Shown here piece after piece: positions 36,686-57,444 of a stretch of DNA of 64,000 bases (the first letter of the stretch is position 1; each line of letters begins with the position of its first letter). Source of the stretch: Chloroflexota bacterium (GTDB lineage: Bacteria > Chloroflexota > Dehalococcoidia > Bin125); contig QGNQ01000008.1 in NCBI GenBank assembly GCA_003228175.2, positions 1,354 through 65,353 of the forward strand. Reading direction: 5' to 3'. The notes beneath the pieces are model-generated. The model saw only the letters and a list, made by a program, of their open reading frames with translations. It was not told the DNA's origin and did not search any database. The translations under genes and the position numbers were made by a program.

Positions 36686-36775
36686 GGAGGGTTCGCATAG
36701 TGGCCTAGTGCGCCCGCCTGCTAAGCGGGTTTCGGGGAGACTCGATCGAGGGTTCGAATCCCTCACCCTCCGCCA
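36686..36775 (+). tRNA. tRNA-Ser (anticodon GCU), long variable arm, encoded CCA
   Basis: GGAGGGT acceptor stem pairs with ACCCTCC; anticodon loop CU-GCU-AA; variable arm TTCGGGGAGACTCGATC; T-arm GAGGGTTCGAATCCCTC; then G-CCA. Confidence 0.9.
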
Positions 36776-49831: not shown

Positions 49832-51006
49832 CCCCTCCCGCCGCGAACGCCGACCCGCCGATCCGGCTCGTCCTCCTGGGCAGCACCGGCAGCGTCGGCA
49901 CGCAGACCATCGACGTCATCCAGGCCATGCCGGATCGCTTCCAAGTCCTGGGCCTGGCCGCCGGGCGCAACCTTGACCTCCTGGCCCAGCAATCGGCCGC
50001 GCTGCGACCCCAAATGATCTGGGCCCACGAGGGGCCGTCAGAGCGGCTCCGCCAGATCGCCGACGCCTGCGGCGCCGAAATCGTCCCCATGGACCAGATG
50101 GCCGCACACCCCACCCTCGACGTCCTCGTCGTCGGCACCGCCGGACGCGCCGGCCTGGAGCCCACCCTGACCGCCTTGCAGCGCGGCCGCGCCGTCGCCC
50201 TCGCCAACAAGGAGGTCGTCGTCATGGCCGGCCACCTGGTGCGCGCCGCCGCCGATCAGGGCGGCGGCCAATTGCGCCCCGTCGACTCGGAGCACAGCGC
50301 CATCTGGCAGTGCCTCTGGGGTGAGGAAGGCAACGAGATCCGTCGAATCTTATTAACAGCGTCGGGTGGCGCACTTCGCGACCTCCCAACCGACGCGCTC
50401 GCCGCCGTCACGCCGGCCCAGGCGCTTCGCCATCCCACCTGGAACATGGGGGCCAAGATCACGATCGACAGTGCCTCGCTCGTCAACAAGGGCATGGAGA
50501 CCATCGAAGCCCGATGGCTCTTCGACGTCCCCTACGAGCGCGTCGAAGTCGTGCAGCACCCCGAGTCCATTGTCCACTCACTCGTCGAAATGGGCGACGG
50601 CTCCGTCAAAGCGCAGCTCGGCAACCCAGACATGCGACTGCCCATCCAGTGCGCCCTGACCTATCCCAAGCGCTTGCAGCCAACCGTCGCGCCGCTCGAT
50701 CTCGCCGCGCTCGGCGCGCTCCATTTCTCCACACCCGACCTCGATCGATACCCCGGCCTGCGCCTCTGCCAAGAGGCGGGCCGTCGCGGCGGCACGTATC
50801 CCTGCGTCATGGCCGCCGCCGATGAACTCGCCGTGGCCGCCTTCATGCAGGACCACATCCCCTTCACCGCCATCCCAGAGGTGATTGAGGCCGCCCTCAC
50901 CGCCCACCGCGGCGCCGACAACCCCGACCTCGAAACGATCGACGCGGCCGACGCCTGGGCGCGCAGCTTCACCCAGCGGCACATCACAGAGCGGATGCTC
51001 GTCTAA
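49816..51006 (+). CDS. dxr: 1-deoxy-D-xylulose 5-phosphate reductoisomerase
   Basis: LVLLGSTGSVGTQT..LANKEVVV..PVDSEHSAIWQCL..LTASGGALRD..HPTWNMGAKITIDSA. Confidence 0.93.
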   Translation: MDRPLTPPAANADPPIRLVLLGSTGSVGTQTIDVIQAMPDRFQVLGLAAGRNLDLLAQQSAALRPQMIWAHEGPSERLRQIADACGAEIVPMDQMAAHPTLDVLVVGTAGRAGLEPTLTALQRGRAVALANKEVVVMAGHLVRAAADQGGGQLRPVDSEHSAIWQCLWGEEGNEIRRILLTASGGALRDLPTDALAAVTPAQALRHPTWNMGAKITIDSASLVNKGMETIEARWLFDVPYERVEVVQHPESIVHSLVEMGDGSVKAQLGNPDMRLPIQCALTYPKRLQPTVAPLDLAALGALHFSTPDLDRYPGLRLCQEAGRRGGTYPCVMAAADELAVAAFMQDHIPFTAIPEVIEAALTAHRGADNPDLETIDAADAWARSFTQRHITERMLV

Positions 51007-52730
51007 TGCTCCTCCTTGACACGGTCCTCCCCTTCGTCGGCGTGCTCGTGGGCCTGATCCTGATCCATGAGGCGGGGCACTACGTCACCGCCAAGCTGGC
51101 CGGCGTTCGCGTCGAGGAGTTCGGCGTCGGCTTCCCACCCCGCGCCAAGGGCAAGCGCATCGGCGAGACCATCTACTCGATCAACTGGCTCCCCCTGGGC
51201 GGCTTCGTCAAGCTCACCGGCGAGGAGAGCTCCCGCGTCTTCATCGCTGACATCAACCGCCACGGCGCCGCCGACGCCGCCGGCCTGCGCGCGCGCGATG
51301 TCATCACCGCCGTCGCCGGCGAGCCCGTCCACAACGAGACCGAACTCGCCGCCGTGCTCGCCGCTGAGGCCCACAGCGGCGTCATCACACTCACCATCGA
51401 GCGCGAAGTCACCACCGGAAACGGGATCGCGCTGGAAGCCTTCGAGTACGACCTAGAGGTCGTGCCCGGCCGCAGCGAAGCGGAGGCCGCTGACGCCGAC
51501 GCCGACGACCGCGCCGACGCCGACGCCCCGGAATCAGCGCAGGCCACCATTGGCCGCATCGCCGGTGTGCAGGTGGGCGCAGACCCGCGTTCATTCGGCT
51601 CCCGCGCGCCCCTCACCCGCATCGGCATCCTCGCCGCCGGAGCCCTCGTCAACCTGGCGCTGCCAATCCTGCTCTTCGCGATCGCCGCCATCATCCCGCA
51701 GGACCGGGCCGCGGGACCCGCCGTCGTCACCTCCGTCGTGCGCGGCGGTCCCGCCGACATGGCCGGATTCGAGGCCGGCGACCGCGTCCTCAGCGTGGAT
51801 GGCGTCGAAACGGAGAACCGTGGCGACGTGGGTCTCCAGATCCGCCTCAACCTCAACGAGAACATCGAAGTCGTGCTGGAGCGCGACACGGTGGCGGAGA
51901 GCACTACCCAACAGCCCGCCGTCGCCAGCACTGAGACCATCGTCACGCACCTCAAACCGCGCCTCGCTCCGCCCACGCTCCTGCACACCGTGCAGGAAGG
52001 CGAGACCGTCCATGACGTCGGGGAGATCCTGGGCGTCAACGCCAGCCAAGTACTGGATGGCGCCGGCTTCGGCGGCGGAGTCGAGCTCGACGAGGGCCTC
52101 GTCCTGGCCCTGCCCGGCGAGACCTATGTCGTCCAGGAGGGGGACACGGCCTTCTCCGTCGCGCGCGACTTCGGCCTGCGCCAGCAGACCGTGCTCGACG
52201 CCGCCAGCATCGACCTGATCAATCTGGAGCCCGGCCTGCGAGTCGCCGTCCCGCAGGGCCCCACCGGCATCACCATCGCCAATGGCAGCTTCACCGTCGT
52301 CAAAGACGGCGAGGGCGTCTTCGGCGCCTTCAGCACCGGCTTCGAGCGCACGCGTGACACCTTCATCCTCTCCTACAACGCGATTCGCAGCTGGCTCGCC
52401 GGCGGCGAGGAATTGCAAGTCAACGGCCCCATTGGACTGGCACAGGGCACGGGCGAAGTCGTTCGCGACGCCGGCTGGATCCGCCTGATTGAGCTCGCCG
52501 CCCTGATCAGCATCAGCCTGGGCATCATGAACCTGCTGCCCATCCCCGGCCTCGACGGCGGCCGCATCGTCTTCGTCCTGATCGAAATCCTGCGACGCGG
52601 CAAGCGCATCTCGCCCGAGAAAGAAGGCCTGGTGCACCTCACCGGCTTCGCCCTCCTGATCACCGCCGCCATCGTCATCGGCTACTTCGACGTCGTCCGC
52701 GTGATCGACGGCGAATCCGTCCTCCGCTAG
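51006..52730 (+). CDS. rseP: RseP/RIP-type site-2 metalloprotease (M50) with PDZ regions and two LysM-like inserts
   Basis: HEAGHYVTAK (HExxH), ..NLLPIPGLDGG (second metal/NPDG-like motif); 574 aa versus about 350-450 typical. Confidence 0.85.
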   Translation: MLLLDTVLPFVGVLVGLILIHEAGHYVTAKLAGVRVEEFGVGFPPRAKGKRIGETIYSINWLPLGGFVKLTGEESSRVFIADINRHGAADAAGLRARDVITAVAGEPVHNETELAAVLAAEAHSGVITLTIEREVTTGNGIALEAFEYDLEVVPGRSEAEAADADADDRADADAPESAQATIGRIAGVQVGADPRSFGSRAPLTRIGILAAGALVNLALPILLFAIAAIIPQDRAAGPAVVTSVVRGGPADMAGFEAGDRVLSVDGVETENRGDVGLQIRLNLNENIEVVLERDTVAESTTQQPAVASTETIVTHLKPRLAPPTLLHTVQEGETVHDVGEILGVNASQVLDGAGFGGGVELDEGLVLALPGETYVVQEGDTAFSVARDFGLRQQTVLDAASIDLINLEPGLRVAVPQGPTGITIANGSFTVVKDGEGVFGAFSTGFERTRDTFILSYNAIRSWLAGGEELQVNGPIGLAQGTGEVVRDAGWIRLIELAALISISLGIMNLLPIPGLDGGRIVFVLIEILRRGKRISPEKEGLVHLTGFALLITAAIVIGYFDVVRVIDGESVLR

Positions 52731-52740
52731 TCGGCCTGCT

Positions 52741-52798
52741 TCATTCGGCCGATTTCATTAATCCGATCGCGCCCGCAAGCAACGCGCGAGATGCCGGT
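52741..52798. repeat. Left copy of a 58-bp imperfect direct repeat (53/58 identical to 54095..54152)
   Basis: tcattcggccgatttcattaatccgatcgcgcccgcaagcaacgcgcgagatgccggt aligned by eye to the right copy. Confidence 0.85.
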
Positions 52799-52817
52799 AG
52801 ACTCTGTACCAGTAGGG

Positions 52818-52856
52818 TTGACAATCCGCCGTCCGTGGTACATACCATGTACCACA
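52818..52856 (+). promoter_or_regulatory. TTGACA hexamer followed by the palindrome GTGGTACAT-ACC-ATGTACCAC upstream of ORF 52879
   Basis: TTGACA at 52818-52823; 9-bp exact inverted arms at 52836-52844 and 52848-52856. Confidence 0.4.
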
Positions 52857-52878
52857 GGGTCCAGAGCAAAAGGGCACG

Positions 52879-53199
52879 ATGTTCTACGTGAAGTTCCTGG
52901 TCCCGGTCACCGACAAGGCCGGTCAGGCCGTGCGCTCCGAGGCCTGGGATCGCCTGGCCGGGCGCATCCTGGACGTGGTGGGGGGCTTCCAGCAGACCCG
53001 CGTCGTGGCCGGGGCCTGGCGCTCCGACTCGGGGCAGGTCTTCCACGAGGAATCCCGCGAGTACGTGATGGCGCTGGACTCCATGCGGCAGGTGGCGGAC
53101 TTCCTGGCCCTGGTCGATTGGGCGGCGGCCGCGTTCGCGCAGGCGGCGATGTTCGTGGAGGTCGCCGGAATCCCCGAAGTGCTCGCCCCGCCCGGCTAG
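52879..53199 (+). CDS. Hypothetical protein (106 aa), first gene of the repeat-bounded cassette
   Basis: MFYVKFLVPVTDKAGQAV..; coding-like composition; no family recognised. Confidence 0.5.
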   Translation: MFYVKFLVPVTDKAGQAVRSEAWDRLAGRILDVVGGFQQTRVVAGAWRSDSGQVFHEESREYVMALDSMRQVADFLALVDWAAAAFAQAAMFVEVAGIPEVLAPPG

Positions 53200-53258
53200 G
53201 GCGCGGCCGCTACTCTGAACGTGTTGGTACTGATTAAGTTGACTGATCGGACAAGACG

Positions 53259-53822
53259 ATGACGACGACCGCGACCCAGACTGCGCGCACCTACACGCTT
53301 TGCGACGGCGCGGTGCTCGACCTGCAGGGGCTCGACGACGAACAGCGCGCGTACCTCGAGGCCGCGTACCGGCGGGCTTGGCCGGCCATCAACGAAGAGG
53401 ACGCCGGGAAGAGCCGGCGGCGGTGCGAGTGGGGCGACTTCTTCAACGATGTCGTCGGCTCCAAGGGGAGCAATCCCCTGCTGCGCGCGACGCAGGGATT
53501 CGTGACGCGGGAGATCTACGACCACCCCTTCTTCCAAGCGCTCTCCGACCTCGCGACTCGGCTGGGGATGCGGCAGGGGCTGCTGAAGCGGCCGCGCGGG
53601 AAGCGCTGGCTGGTGGACCCGTTCGCCGACGAGTTCGCGCCGGTCTCCGAGATCGCGAGCCGGAAGTCGGTGACGGTGAAGGCCGTCCACAAGGCGATCG
53701 ACCGGGGGGACCTGGTGACGGTGACGGGCGTCCTTGATGGGGCCGGGCCGAAGTCGGGTCTCCTGGTCAGCGCGCGAAGCGCGAAGGCCTGGGCGCCGAA
53801 GCGGGTGAAGGCCGCGAGCTGA
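53259..53822 (+). CDS. Hypothetical protein (187 aa) with a possible C-terminal HTH
   Basis: ..PVSEIASRKSVTVKAVHKAIDRGDL.. resembles an excisionase/MerR-type HTH; otherwise unassigned. Confidence 0.5.
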   Translation: MTTTATQTARTYTLCDGAVLDLQGLDDEQRAYLEAAYRRAWPAINEEDAGKSRRRCEWGDFFNDVVGSKGSNPLLRATQGFVTREIYDHPFFQALSDLATRLGMRQGLLKRPRGKRWLVDPFADEFAPVSEIASRKSVTVKAVHKAIDRGDLVTVTGVLDGAGPKSGLLVSARSAKAWAPKRVKAAS

Positions 53823-54115
53823 TGGGCGTTGGGGATTGCCCGGTGCGTCGGTGCAAGTGGTGCAATGGGAGGCTCGGGAACGGCGAGCGGGTGGCGGTCG
53901 AGGGTGAGACGGTCTGGTACCGAGCCGCCTGCCAGGACTGTAGCCGCCGGACGTCGGTGCAAGCCAGCGAGCTTGAGGATGCGAGCCAGGTACCGACAGG
54001 GCAGCCGTCGCGCTCCGCAAGCTGGAGGCGGAAGCCGCGCCGAAGCTGCTCTAGGCGCGTGTCGCGCTGGTGGTGGGGGCGGTCGTGGGCCGCTTCATTA
54101 GGCCGATTTCATTAA
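53822..54115 (+). CDS. Hypothetical zinc-ribbon-like protein; 3' part doubtful
   Basis: CPVRRCKWCNG..(24 aa)..CQDCSRR. ATGA overlap with the preceding ORF. The Arg/Trp-rich tail after about residue 55 looks non-coding. Confidence 0.3.
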   Translation: MGVGDCPVRRCKWCNGRLGNGERVAVEGETVWYRAACQDCSRRTSVQASELEDASQVPTGQPSRSASWRRKPRRSCSRRVSRWWWGRSWAASLGRFH

Positions 54116-54152
54116 GCCGATCGTGCCCGCAAGCGACGCGCGAGATGCAGGT
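54095..54152. repeat. Right copy of the 58-bp direct repeat
   Basis: tcattaggccgatttcattaagccgatcgtgcccgcaagcgacgcgcgagatgcaggt; covers the last 13 codons or so, plus the stop, of the higA-like remnant. Confidence 0.85.
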
Positions 54153-54300
54153 CGTATTCCGTCTGCCGCCCGAGCCAGATCCGTGCGTCGACCCCCAGCG
54201 CCTGCGCAAGCTGGAGCGCCGTCTCCGCGGTGATCCGCTTCTTCCCGCGGAACAGCCGCCGAGAGGATCGTTGCCGCGATCGAAAAGGAACCCGTCCTAG
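54112..54300 (-). pseudogene. Remnant of a HigA/VapI-type (XRE HTH) antitoxin gene, C-terminal half only
   Basis: Own translation: ..SRRLFRGKKRITAETALQLAQALGVDARIWLGRQTEYDLHLARRLRARSA*. It resembles E. coli HigA ..[38 protein letters not shown]. No in-frame start; the upstream frame is broken. Confidence 0.45.
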
Positions 54301-54336
54301 TCTGATCGAGCCAATCCCGCCACCGTCACGAGATCG

Positions 54337-54368
54337 GAGAAGCCCGCCCGGTTCGGGGCGGGCTTCTC
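54337..54368. terminator. 13-bp perfect GC-rich hairpin, likely terminator of the metzincin gene
   Basis: GAGAAGCCCGCCC-ggttcg-GGGCGGGCTTCTC, 50 nt downstream of the stop at 54418; weak U tract. Confidence 0.55.
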
Positions 54369-54417
54369 TTGTACCCGGTCGGTCTCAAGTCCGGCGACGC
54401 GGGAGCGCCGCCCAGCC

Positions 54418-55764
54418 TCAGTTCGCGGCCGCCGGCTGGAACAGAATGTGACCGGCCAGGAAGTTGCCCTGGTCCTCGGACATGCCCGTGTTGTCGGTGT
54501 CGTGGAACATGAAGTTCCCACCGTCCGTGCACTCCGTCTGGTCCACCGTCCCGTCGGCGTCCGCGTCGTTGCTGAGGTCGCACTGGAACGTGTCGGGCAC
54601 CCAGTCGAAGAAGTCACCGCTGGACTCCGTCGTGTGGTTCAGCCCCAACAGGTGTCCGGCCTCGTGCCAGACCGTCGTCGCGTTGCCGGCCAGCGTCACG
54701 CCGCCGGCGTTCGCCGTCACCACCACGCAGGACGTGCGCGAGTTGGCGATCAACGTCGCGCCCGGAATCCCAGCCGCGTTGCCAAGCGTCACGCCTTCGC
54801 TTTCAGGATCGTTGACGCTGTCGACCAGCACGAAGTTCAACGTGTGGTCCTGACCGAACTGCTGCGACATCGCGTCACACAGCGCGCGCTGCGTCGTGTC
54901 GTTGCCGGTGCTCGGCAGCGGCAGGTCCGCGAACTGGTCGATGATGTTCTGCGGCGCATCGACGAACTCGATCGTGCCGATCTGCAGGTTGGCGCTACCG
55001 AAGATCGCGTCGCCACGCTCCCGGAAGACTTGCTCAGTGGTCGCCCGGCTGGCGGCGTCTGCCACCTCGTCACTGGATGTCGCCACCCAGAACCTGGCGT
55101 TCAACACCTGCGCGGCGCCGTTCGTGTCCTGCTTGAGGATCACCCCAACCGTCGTCGCCACATCGGAGACCACCGACACCGAGTAGGTGCCCGCCGTCAG
55201 CGGCGTCGCGTCCGTCAGCGGCACCAGAATCGCAGCGTCGCCACTGCCCTGGCGGCCGTCCGGAATCAGATCCGCCGTGATCGACGCGCCATCGGGGCCC
55301 GTCACATCCGTAATCGTGATCAGATCGTCGATACCGGGGCCCTGCGCGTAGAACAGGAACGAGCCTTCGCCCGCCTCGACGTCCACGGTCACCACGCCGC
55401 CGCCGGCCGGCACCGCGCCCAGATCGACGATCCTCAGGTCGTCCAGCGAGTCGACCGGTGTCGGTCCGGGGTCGGGGTCACCACCATCGTCGGGGTCGCC
55501 CCCATCGTCGGGGTCACCACCGCTAGCGTCGGGATCGGAAGTCCAATCGAACGACTCCGTAGCGTTGGTGAACATGCCCGCGCCGGGCGCAAGTTCCACA
55601 CTGTTGCGCAGCGGCGCCGGCAGCAGCTTGGAGTCCGAATCGAAGCTGTTCGACTCCGGATCGAAGGCCCACAACGTCTGGAGCGCCGGGAAGGTCTCGA
55701 AGACGCCATCGGAGTCGGCGCCCTCGGGATCGCACACGGCCAGAATGTTCAGCCCATCGTTCAA
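54418..55764 (-). CDS. Metzincin-type zinc metalloprotease, distal segment (in frame with 55771..56130 across a single TAG)
   Basis: VWHEAGHLLGLNH (HExxHxxGxxH). No signal peptide of its own. Begins with a second copy of the unnamed domain of about 80 aa. The track start is a TTG. Confidence 0.75.
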   Translation of the reverse strand: MNDGLNILAVCDPEGADSDGVFETFPALQTLWAFDPESNSFDSDSKLLPAPLRNSVELAPGAGMFTNATESFDWTSDPDASGGDPDDGGDPDDGGDPDPGPTPVDSLDDLRIVDLGAVPAGGGVVTVDVEAGEGSFLFYAQGPGIDDLITITDVTGPDGASITADLIPDGRQGSGDAAILVPLTDATPLTAGTYSVSVVSDVATTVGVILKQDTNGAAQVLNARFWVATSSDEVADAASRATTEQVFRERGDAIFGSANLQIGTIEFVDAPQNIIDQFADLPLPSTGNDTTQRALCDAMSQQFGQDHTLNFVLVDSVNDPESEGVTLGNAAGIPGATLIANSRTSCVVVTANAGGVTLAGNATTVWHEAGHLLGLNHTTESSGDFFDWVPDTFQCDLSNDADADGTVDQTECTDGGNFMFHDTDNTGMSEDQGNFLAGHILFQPAAAN

Positions 55765-55770
55765 GCTGAG

Positions 55771-56130
55771 CTAGAACTCGACCAGATCAAACTCCAGATC
55801 GAACGCCTCCGTCGAGCGGACGAAGAAGCCCAATCCTGTAGGAATATCGAGATCGTTGCGCAACGGGGTGGGCAGCGCCTCGGCGTCCGAGTCGTAGCCA
55901 TTCGTCTCGTTGTTGAACAGCCAGATCGTGTCGATCGGCGACTCGTCAATCAAGAGGCCGGTCGACGACTCCTCGCCGCACCAACCCAGCAGGCTGATGC
56001 CCTCCGGGACCTCCACCAACGACGTCTGCGCCTGCACCGGGTTCACCGCCCCGGACGCCAGTCCAAAGCCGATCACCGCCGCCAGCCGGTACGGCCGCCA
56101 GCCGGTACGGCCGCCAGCCGGTACGGCCAA
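55771..56130 (-). CDS. Signal peptide plus first domain copy of the metzincin gene, proximal segment ending at an in-frame TAG
   Basis: ..YRLAAVIGFGLASGAVNPVQAQ (signal peptide), then LVEVPEGISLLGWCGEE..IWLFNNETNGYDSD..PTPLRND.. Confidence 0.6.
   Translation of the reverse strand: MAVPAGGRTGWRPYRLAAVIGFGLASGAVNPVQAQTSLVEVPEGISLLGWCGEESSTGLLIDESPIDTIWLFNNETNGYDSDAEALPTPLRNDLDIPTGLGFFVRSTEAFDLEFDLVEF
56081..56128. repeat. Perfect 16-bp tandem repeat GCCAGCCGGTACGGCC x3 at the 5' end of the metzincin gene
   Basis: Units at 56081, 56097 and 56113 are identical. The unit length is not a multiple of 3. Confidence 0.9.
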
Positions 56131-56216
56131 CGCATGGATTCACGAATCATCATCAATCCCCATTCCCTTTCCTGTCTGAACCACTTTCGAATTCCACCCA
56201 GCACGCGAACCACCCG

Positions 56217-56240
56217 CCGGCTTCGTATGTGTGAAGCCGG
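56217..56240 (-). terminator. Candidate hairpin downstream of ispG
   Basis: CCGGCTTC-8 nt-GAAGCCGG about 40 nt after the ispG stop; no clear U tract. Confidence 0.3.
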
Positions 56241-56280
56241 GATGTGAAAGCGCCTGTCAATCACAACCGCAATGAACCCC

Positions 56281-57444
56281 TCAATGGACCCCCGTCGCGT
56301 GAGGCGCTCGCCCCGCGATCAGCGCGTCCACCTCAACCTTCAGCCGGCCCAGGATCTCGTCGTAGCTGTACTGCCCCAGGGGCTCCGGCCCCTTCTTGAG
56401 ATTGACGGCCGTAGGCCCGCACCACAGGCCCAGATCGGCGTCGTCCGTCTCGCCGGGGCCGTTCACCCGGCAGCCCATCACCGCGATCGTGATGTCGTGC
56501 TCCTTGGCGTAGGCCGTCATCGTCTTCACATCCTGCGCCAGCTCAATGAAGCGCTCGTTCTCCACCCGCGAGCACGACGGGCAACTGATGATGTTCAGGC
56601 CCTCGTCCATCCCCGGCGGCACCGATCGAAAACGACCCACGGCGATGTCGCGCAGAATCTCCCGCGCCACGGTCACCTCCTGGCCCTTGTCGTCGAAGGG
56701 CACCGTCAGCGAGACCCGCACCGTGTCGCCAATCCCCTCCGCGATCAATTGCTCAAACGCGACCCGCGTCTTGATGATCCCGTCCGGCGGCATCCCCGCC
56801 TCGGTCACACCCAAGTGCAGCGGCACATCGGGCCGCTCCTGGGCGAAGGCCCGGTTCACCGCCACTACCTTCTTCCAGTCCGAGTCCTTCAACGAGACCA
56901 CATAGCGACTGAAGCCCATCGCATCCAGCAGCGCGCAGTGCTCCAGCGCGCTGGCCACAATCGCCGTGGCGTGGTCCCCGTCGTATCGCTCCATCATGCG
57001 CGGGTCCACGGAGCCGCAATTCACCCCGATCCGTAGCGCGCAATCGTGCCGCTCCGCCGTCTCCGCGATAAACGCCACCTTCTGCGCGATCGTTTTCTCT
57101 TTCTCATGGTGATGCAGATGGCCGGGGTTGTAGCGCATCTTGTCGACATGCGGCGCAACCTCGCTGGCCAGCCGGTAGTTCTCCTGCAGATCGACGGACA
57201 GAGTCGCGCCGGTCCGCTCGCGCACCGTCGCCAGCGCCTCAACATCCTTCGACGAGTCCACCGCGATCCGCACCAGATCGGCCCCGGCGGCCATAATCAG
57301 CTCCACCTGGCGAACCGTCGCCTCGATGTCCTGCGTGCGCGTGGCCGCCATCGACTGCACCGCGATCGGTGCGCCCGCGCCCATCTGGATCCCGCCCACG
57401 CGCACGGCCCGGGTCGGATTACGTTGCGACGCAGTCTGAGACAT
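56281..57444 (-). CDS. ispG: 4-hydroxy-3-methylbut-2-en-1-yl diphosphate synthase
   Basis: ..[58 protein letters not shown]. Confidence 0.93.

Follow-up and report, generated by a model that had tools for sequence, protein, structure and literature searches.

What is the small set of genes that lies between two short direct repeats just downstream of rseP in a Chloroflexota bacterium (Dehalococcoidia; Bin125), and how did it come to be there? We addressed this question on a 64,000-nt stretch of DNA (assembly GCA_003228175.2, contig QGNQ01000008.1, positions 1,354 to 65,353 of the forward strand), hereafter the window, whose own numbering is used for its features. Between the repeats, a promoter region precedes three open reading frames (ORF1 to ORF3), which a preliminary description took for a three-gene cassette with no assignable member, its architecture being that expected of site-specific integration into the 3' end of a higA-like antitoxin gene. 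All three ORFs are present as described, but the core of the cassette is a conserved two-gene operon, ORF1-ORF2, apparently of phage derivation, to which ORF3 does not belong, and ORF1 is a predicted enzyme from an unannotated branch of the S-adenosylmethionine (SAM) lyase superfamily. With slightly more confidence than doubt, we read the locus as a SAM-lyase-like module that came from a phage, is controlled by an operator and was captured, through one crossover, at what is left of a higBA site, with ORF2 as its repressor and possibly as a neutraliser of ORF1. The weight of the finding lies on this unannotated module and not on the repeats that surround it. The features concerned are the following:

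52733-52798: left copy of the direct repeat, an orphan higA 3' end plus downstream flank, with an internal doublet at 52740-52767
52818-52823, plus strand: TTGACA, -35-like hexamer of the module promoter
52835-52855: perfect 9+3+9 palindrome GTGGTACAT-ACC-ATGTACCAC, a putative operator overlapping the -10 region
52879-53199, plus strand: ORF1, 106 amino acids (aa), member of the SAM-lyase superfamily with a PII-like (GlnB-like) alpha/beta fold; E57 and Q88 are the predicted catalytic residues
53259-53822, plus strand: ORF2, 187 aa, novel N-terminal domain (residues ~10-105) and excisionase-type winged helix-turn-helix (HTH; ~126-177)
53822-54115, plus strand: ORF3, 97 aa as read, with a Cys4 zinc-ribbon N-terminal part (~50 codons), ending inside the right repeat
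54087-54152: right copy of the direct repeat, contiguous with the higA fragment, with the doublet at 54094-54121
54115-54279, minus strand: 5'-truncated HigA-family antitoxin pseudogene, with stops TAA TGA at 54109-54114

ORF1, which had been described as belonging to no family, in fact represents a large one. A word-indexed search with ORF1 retrieved only itself, and an exhaustive HMMER search was needed to recover its relatives, which form at least 198 clusters at E<=1e-3, nearly all of 100-115 aa, with the consensus LIPxxDNxG...GGFT...GxW....GxxYxDxS..Y.VAL...FxQEAxY...AGxPEIL. The model obtained with AF2 from a 50-sequence family alignment (pLDDT 95.7) has the order beta-alpha-beta-beta-alpha-beta, that is, the PII/GlnB-like alpha-beta sandwich also found in the phage SAM lyases (Svi3-3, T3 SAMase; PF23780). 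In agreement with this, the top PDB matches of the model in Foldseek are two structures of the phage SAM lyase Svi3-3, 6zm9 and 6znb (methylthioadenosine-bound and apo; E 3e-5 to 4e-5, TM 0.70-0.71 as TMq), followed by CutA1 and PII proteins at E ~3e-3, and its best matches among the viral models of BFVD are uncharacterised phage proteins. Alignment with hhalign to the Svi3-3 sequence, taken from the supplement of the published paper, pairs SGQVFHEES of ORF1 with SGQLVTENS and FAQAAMFVEV with FKQESVIVEI. This equates the acidic E57, at the C-terminal end of the T-loop, with E69 of Svi3-3 (E71 in SAM-AMP lyase), S59 with S71, and Q88, in the B-loop, with Q104 (Q108 in SAM-AMP lyase). In Svi3-3, strict conservation is limited to Gly56, Glu69 and Gln104, with Tyr58 and Glu105 in assisting roles, and the E69Q change abolishes activity (PMC7877911); when SAM-AMP lyase is compared with SAM lyase, the T-loop Glu and the B-loop Gln alone are structurally conserved across both enzyme types (PMC12255297). 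Counted over 136 relatives of ORF1 (some residues over 50 only, as indicated), G45 is found in 136/136, W47 in 134/136, D or E at position 57 in 135/136 and Q88 in 135/136, and the residue after Q88 is Glu in 78/136 and Ala in the window protein.

Family profiles point in the same direction. S-AdoMet_lyase (PF23780) is matched by five of the 136 relatives (1/50 and 4/86; best E 3.9e-5), none of the N-terminally extended relatives being among them, and DUF3574 by seven (1/50 and 6/86). Since only other members of the family match PF23780, the Pfam link of ORF1 itself to the SAM lyases is transitive. The profile phrog_3543, of unknown function, is matched by 28 of 50 family members and weakly by the window ORF1. 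From the fold match, the aligned residues, their conservation and the Pfam matches of the relatives, we therefore place the ORF1 family in the SAM-lyase superfamily, as a distinct branch of predicted enzymes that sits between Pfam DUF3574 and S-AdoMet_lyase and is found in uncultured lineages, both on bacterial chromosomes and in prophages. Its size (SAM lyases have about 100-150 aa) and its phage association are further points in common. Unlike the SAM and SAM-AMP lyases, which are encoded by early genes of lytic phages or by accessory genes of CRISPR loci, ORF1 forms a fixed pair with an HTH_17 protein under its own operator.

The pair ORF1-ORF2 recurs at seven loci besides the window and its identical contigs, in unrelated contexts. 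L007 and L008 are metagenome contigs, the former holding only the last 31 codons of ORF1; L089, L093 (Dehalococcoidia) and L097 are chromosomal (L098 repeats the L097 locus); and L092 and L099 lie in prophages, L092 adjoining terminase, portal and Dam genes and being transcribed against its neighbours, L099 adjoining baseplate and tail genes. The two genes are separated by 20-86 nt at these loci and by 59 nt in the window. Searches of phage sequences gave no match for ORF2 in 50,697 phage genomes and a single weak match to an ORF1 relative, in Brochothrix phage ADU4. ORF1 had no match in a plasmid collection, and scans of IMG/VR with the ORF2 alignment and with two ORF1-family members returned no relative.

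ORF2 was likewise considered unassignable, apart from a possible HTH. Its C-terminal 50 residues match the Pukovnik Xis (4j2n; prob 1.0, TMt 0.71) and BldC, in a model of moderate quality overall (pLDDT 73), and the partner proteins of L097 and L099 contain HTH_17 above the Pfam threshold. ORF2 thus ends in the same winged helix as HTH_17/MerR-superfamily proteins such as Pukovnik Xis, BldC and Rv2175c; unlike them, it has an extra conserved domain of ~100 residues at its N-terminus, for which no relatives were detectable, and it is coupled to an enzyme gene and not to an integrase. Homologues of ORF2 are few but clear, with 51-67% identity along the full length. More distant partners, at L089, L092 and L093, are 33-36% identical, and those of L097 and L099 match other partners only and co-align with ORF2; the members of the family share the motifs NPLL, HP..AL.DL..R.G and the C-terminal HTH over an end-to-end alignment. 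The partner in L097 (3125-3943 of that locus) has 272 aa, with a ~110-residue C-terminal extension after HTH_17, so the ORF2 family tolerates added modules. Both genes of the pair look coding in the window, with GC contents at third codon positions (GC3) of 0.94 for ORF1 and 0.93 for ORF2, and third-codon-position changes predominate when they are compared with their homologues. Scans of ORF1-3 with Pfam, PHROGs, PADLOC and NCBIfam gave nothing usable apart from the weak phrog_3543 match of ORF1.

ORF3 behaves differently. It overlaps ORF2 by 1 nt in the sequence TGATG, and not by the ATGA reported previously, and its GC3 is 0.84 in the first half, the second half having a pattern that is not coding-like. 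After ~50 codons the coding-like signal moves to the other plus-strand frame, where it reads GTDRAAVALRKLEAEAAPKLL up to a stop at 54052-54054. Family scans of ORF3 gave no match, and no ORF3 homologue or zinc-ribbon ORF was found downstream of any ORF2 relative. ORF3 is therefore probably a lineage-specific gene, frameshifted or decaying, and what had been taken for a cassette of three genes is a conserved two-gene module followed by a non-conserved ORF. A 274-aa antisense ORF (53196-54020, minus strand) that spans ORF2 and ORF3 was rejected as a high-GC artefact (GC by codon position 0.83/0.58/0.65).

The promoter region, with TTGACA and a palindrome as initially described, provides the other conserved trait of the module. 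Upstream of the ORF1 ATG, the palindrome begins at a distance of 44 nt. L008 has an almost identical palindrome core, AGTACATAcTATGTACT, equally far from its start codon, although the surrounding DNA there has diverged and the proteins are 43% (ORF1) and 60% (ORF2) identical to those of the window; the promoter geometry there (GACA, 15 nt, TACATA) is also like that of the window. In L092, GTAC-core inverted repeats are placed around a promoter TTGACA-N17-TACTAT. Because this conserved operator adjoins the gene of an HTH protein, we consider autoregulation by ORF2 a plausible mode of control. Some further details concern the same sites. In the prophage copy (L092, 5915-6360), the 11-nt inverted repeat TGTACAGCATA / TATGCTGTAC brackets TTGACA-N17-TACTAT, and a related 21-mer occurs again between the ORF1 and ORF2 homologues, which suggests that L092 carries two operator sites. 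A TGGTAC half-site of the palindrome is present in the ORF1-ORF2 spacer of the window as well (53230-53245, GTGTTGGTACTGA), ~20 nt upstream of the ORF2 start, and the regulator may have its second binding site there.

This organisation recalls that of toxin-first type II toxin-antitoxin systems (HigBA, MqsRA, HicAB), in which a gene of ~100 aa is followed by a larger, co-oriented HTH gene. As in those systems, the two genes are adjacent and appear, judging from their sequences, to share an autoregulatory operator, a palindrome placed over the promoter; the patchy distribution in prophages and islands and the exchange of a partner, at a locus described below (L006), are also similar. By contrast, family scans detected no homology of ORF1 or ORF2 to known toxins or antitoxins, and the genes lie 20-86 nt apart without overlap. 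No precedent for a SAM lyase acting as a toxin was found in the literature searched.

How the module reached its present position can be approached by comparing the interval between rseP and ispG, two convergent core genes, with that of seven related metagenome-assembled genomes of uncultured Dehalococcoidia (Chloroflexota; L009-L015, with 10-kb flanks), whose RseP and IspG are 53-75% and 79-89% identical to those of the window. The parts of this interval that lie outside the repeat-flanked unit, together with the interval itself, are:

52731-56280: lineage-specific block of 3.55 kb between rseP (stop ends at 52730) and ispG (stop begins at 56281)
54337-54368: terminator-like hairpin with a perfect 13-bp stem (100% complementary), between the metalloprotease gene and the higA fragment
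54418-55764, minus strand: M12/reprolysin-like zinc metalloprotease of 448 aa (Reprolysin_5, E 2.1e-6; GC3 0.87)
55771-56130, minus strand: ORF of 119 aa (118 aa in other samples), one domain of which is paralogous to the metalloprotease N-terminus

In 7/7 relatives the stop codons of rseP and ispG are 8-43 nt apart, compared with 3,550 nt in the window, and none of the genes of the block occurs in the 10-kb flanks of these relatives. The region is thus an insertion, as had been proposed, but one larger than the 1.35-kb cassette first delimited: because rseP and ispG adjoin in the seven relatives, the whole of 52731-56280 is lineage-specific, including the higA fragment, the metalloprotease gene and the 119-aa ORF. 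The block contains, in this order, the left repeat, ORF1, ORF2, ORF3, the right repeat with the higA fragment, the hairpin, the metalloprotease gene and the 119-aa ORF, and its GC content and codon-position GC are like those of the host. At least seven samples yielded contigs of the same population, whose identity to the window is 99.5-100% overall and 100% across the cassette; every one that reaches the region carries the cassette, and no strain variant lacking it and no empty or circular junction was found among them.

The repeats themselves are as the preliminary description reported them and somewhat longer. Between 52741-52798 and 54095-54152, 53 of the 58 positions are identical, and the similarity extends 8 nt leftwards, to 52733-52798 and 54087-54152, with 59/66 (89%) identical positions. 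The left copy begins 10 nt after the rseP stop in its 58-nt form, as stated before, and 2 nt after it in the extended form. Within each copy the 14-nt sequence TTCATTnnnCCGAT stands twice in tandem, as a doublet, so that the motif occupies four sites in the window, with none expected by chance, and the 30-nt repeat core, searched with up to three mismatches over the whole 64 kb, occurs at two sites only, compared with 0/100 shuffles. Read on the minus strand, the left copy encodes HLARCLRARSD and the right copy HLARRLRARSA, each followed by two stops. The right copy is indeed the natural 3' end of a decayed higA: it comprises the final 12-13 codons of a HigA-family fragment together with its stops, TAA-TGA. 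TIGR02607 (antidote_HigA) matches this fragment with E 1.2e-10 and 41.1 bits (cut-off 47.7) over profile positions 38-79 of 81, that is, in its C-terminal half only, and HTH_3 with E 2.3e-4 over positions 28-53 of 55; its GC by codon position is 0.73/0.56/0.80. The range of the TIGR02607 match implies that the gene is missing its 5' half and, since neither a start codon nor an upstream higB is present at the locus, we regard it as a 5'-truncated pseudogene. The two repeat copies must derive from one ancestral sequence, because both share the 14-nt microduplication of the stop region. Their seven mismatches are scattered, the longest identical run being 15 nt, a pattern that suits an old duplication just as well as recombination between diverged alleles. 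Between the left copy and the -35 hexamer there are 19 nt, and the right copy starts 32 nt after the alternative-frame stop of ORF3.

We propose that these features arose as follows. A circular intermediate would have carried the module together with a diverged copy of the higA 3' end, and one crossover between it and the higA 3' end already in place would have duplicated the target, leaving the promoter, ORF1, ORF2 and ORF3 between one repeat and a second repeat continuous with the truncated higA. The crossover could have been driven by homology or catalysed by a recombinase acting in trans. SAM lyases are trimers whose active sites lie between subunits, and they split SAM into methylthioadenosine and homoserine lactone. 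In its new place, ORF1 would form a trimer that cleaves SAM or a close derivative, and ORF2 would bind the GTAC-core palindrome over the promoter and keep ORF1 expression low; the N-terminal domain of ORF2 might also neutralise ORF1. The outcome would be a toxin-first, HigBA-ordered unit, toxin-antitoxin-like or acting in abortive infection, or alternatively a regulated anti-restriction unit. Of the options raised in the preliminary description, that of a toxin-antitoxin-like or defence module is the most interesting, and it may hold. The integration interpretation of that description is partly supported: the layout is that left by a single-crossover (Campbell-type) insertion, but the repeats are unique to this site and the homologous modules lack them.

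Several observations weigh against this reading. Unlike the SAM lyases, the window ORF1 has no direct Pfam match (none, S-AdoMet_lyase included, in a scan at E<=1), its T-loop is shorter, and Trp (W47) stands near the conserved Gly in place of the catalytic-site Tyr of Svi3-3, outside the stretch aligned by hhalign; in Svi3-3 the Gly-x-Tyr motif (G56/Y58) packs on the ribose and sulfonium. The hhalign E-value is just 0.0048, and neither the ORF1 profile nor the single sequence gave anything significant against PDB sequences. Two positions of the window protein depart from its family, K13 where 48/50 relatives have N and A89, aligned with E105 of Svi3-3, where 31/50 have E. The PADLOC defence models gave no match to ORF1 or ORF2 better than E 0.009. 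A strict sigma-70 consensus scan found no full promoter at the module, so its -10 element must be weak or atypical. The pairing of the two genes has exceptions: the phage-like contig L096 contains an ORF1 relative without the partner, and in L006 a relative of ORF2 (67% identical) is preceded by an unrelated 200-aa gene, which could be an effector swap of the kind typical of conflict modules. As for the route of insertion, the 11% divergence of the repeats is equally compatible with an old duplication. The preliminary description had envisaged empty sites in which rseP is followed directly by higA; those of the relatives lack the entire 3.55 kb, higA included, and because no such rseP-higA intermediate without the cassette was found among them, the crossover model is an argument from topology. 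The 200-aa protein of L006 (9383-9985) contains a YRHSLELYLK motif; a HEPN identity, at E 0.06 only, was not accepted.

Other explanations of the repeats have to be compared with this one. The layout resembles that of elements integrated at gene 3' ends, in which direct repeats of tens of bases, one of them completing the target gene, flank DNA absent from relatives. The 1.35-kb unit might then be a minimal or decayed integrative element with attL/attR ends, mobilised by a tyrosine or serine recombinase encoded elsewhere, with ORF2 as a directionality factor acting on the 14-nt doublets. The restored gene 3' end, the absence of the region from the seven relatives, the excisionase-type winged HTH of ORF2 and the tandem direct 14-mers in each repeat, a type of site bound by Xis proteins, speak for such an element, which we nevertheless consider very unlikely. 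The original observation that integrase, transposase and relaxase genes are missing holds after family scans of all ORFs of 52731-56280, so that the block has neither a recombinase nor an excisionase-integrase pair; the repeats are 89% identical and lack a long identical core; and the target gene is itself a truncated pseudogene. Further copies of the repeat, which a mobile element would lead one to look for, are not found elsewhere: the doublet pattern occurs, among 241 million metagenome records, in the same contig only, and is absent from IMG/VR, for which reason we discarded the repeat as the end of a widespread element. No flanking repeats are present at the seven other ORF1-ORF2 loci, which indicates that the repeats are a local scar and not the ends of the module. 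In addition, the doublet is a mere microduplication of the higA stop region, all population contigs contain the cassette with no empty or circular junction, and the coupling of ORF2 to ORF1 and to the promoter palindrome fits a transcription factor better. Altogether, the repeats look like a local insertion scar rather than the ends of a self-mobile element. A tRNA was also discarded as the insertion target, the sole tRNA of the window being at 36686. It is somewhat less improbable, though still not what we would expect, that unequal crossing-over or replication slippage long ago duplicated the higA 3' end locally, within an insertion hot spot, and that the module later landed between the copies by illegitimate recombination, in which case the repeats would carry no information on the movement of the cassette. 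The interval has acquired three or more unrelated pieces (higBA, ORF1-ORF2 and the metalloprotease genes) and contains a truncated pseudogene, both ORF3 and higA are decaying, and the repeat copies differ by 11% with scattered mismatches. Such a history would, however, need two independent events, and the tight bracketing of the module (19 nt and 32 nt) is explained more simply by a single one. Finally, the idea that the repeats are functional structured elements, such as integron attC-like sites, a repeated small RNA or a terminator, is essentially refuted. Two similar 66-nt elements do flank the cassette, and toxin-antitoxin genes are common in integron arrays, but the repeats fold no better than shuffles on either strand (z -0.12 to +0.87) and match no Rfam family, there is no integron integrase, the two copies have no counterpart in other contigs, and the cassette comprises two to three genes with a promoter of their own.

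The nature of the module, independently of its route of entry, can also be read in another way. ORF1-ORF2 could be a moron that serves prophages in counter-defence: its SAM or SAM-AMP lyase would act against SAM-dependent restriction, BREX or type III CRISPR signalling, ORF2 would be a transcriptional regulator only and the window would hold a stranded prophage remnant. The accounts of SAM lyases that we drew on describe them as enzymes with which phages counter restriction or BREX, and an anti-CRISPR role has been proposed for a SAM-AMP lyase from a phage (PMC12255297). Two of the paired loci are inside prophages, phrog_3543 is matched by more than half of the family members examined (28/50), and the best structural matches in BFVD are phage proteins. 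We hold this to be a serious possibility, though an unlikely one: at least four paired loci (window, L089, L093 and L097) lie among housekeeping genes, with no phage genes in the flanks examined, in the window the neighbours of the pair decay whereas purifying selection keeps the pair itself intact, and the phage genomes and IMG/VR scans returned only the one weak match to an ORF1 relative mentioned above. Returning to the captured, ORF2-controlled module, a bolder version of it, more doubtful still than the moron, is that ORF1 is a metabolic toxin or abortive-infection effector that depletes SAM and is checked by its partner, the pair being a new class of two-gene conflict module. The Xis-type winged HTH would then repress the operon at the GTAC-core palindrome, and the novel N-terminal domain would sense a trigger or neutralise the enzyme. 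Such a module, if real, would be the cellular counterpart of the anti-restriction SAM lyases of phages.

Should ORF1 degrade SAM, the pair would be the first SAM-depleting toxin-antitoxin or abortive-infection unit, or else a regulated anti-restriction cassette carried by temperate phages into lysogens. In either case methyl-donor metabolism would be tied to genome conflict in a new way, and the DUF3574-like proteins would acquire a function that can be tested. The interest of the repeat-flanked arrangement is only local: it documents the capture of a module at what is left of a higBA site, the interval between the core genes rseP and ispG being an insertion hot spot.

The remainder of the block and its border offer some minor observations. 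The hairpin at 54337-54368 is likely the terminator of the metalloprotease gene, which it separates from the higA fragment. The 119-aa ORF and the metalloprotease ORF are separated by just a stop codon and a few bases, and a paralogous segment is found in the former (IWLFNNETNGYDSDAEALPTPLRNDL...) and at the N-terminus of the latter (LWAFDPESNSFDSDSKLLPAPLRNSV...); the two may be one split gene or reflect a duplicated pro-domain. In the 5' part of the 119-aa ORF, a 16-nt indel polymorphism (56078-56093) distinguishes the window, which has 16 additional bases (a tandem repeat of CCGGTACGGCC...), from the contigs L001 and L103, where the ORF has 118 aa. At the border of the block, the RseP/site-2 protease (51006-52730) is unusually long, with 574 aa, a length common to close Dehalococcoidia relatives, and carries a LysM domain (E 3e-7) and two PDZ domains inside the M50 fold.

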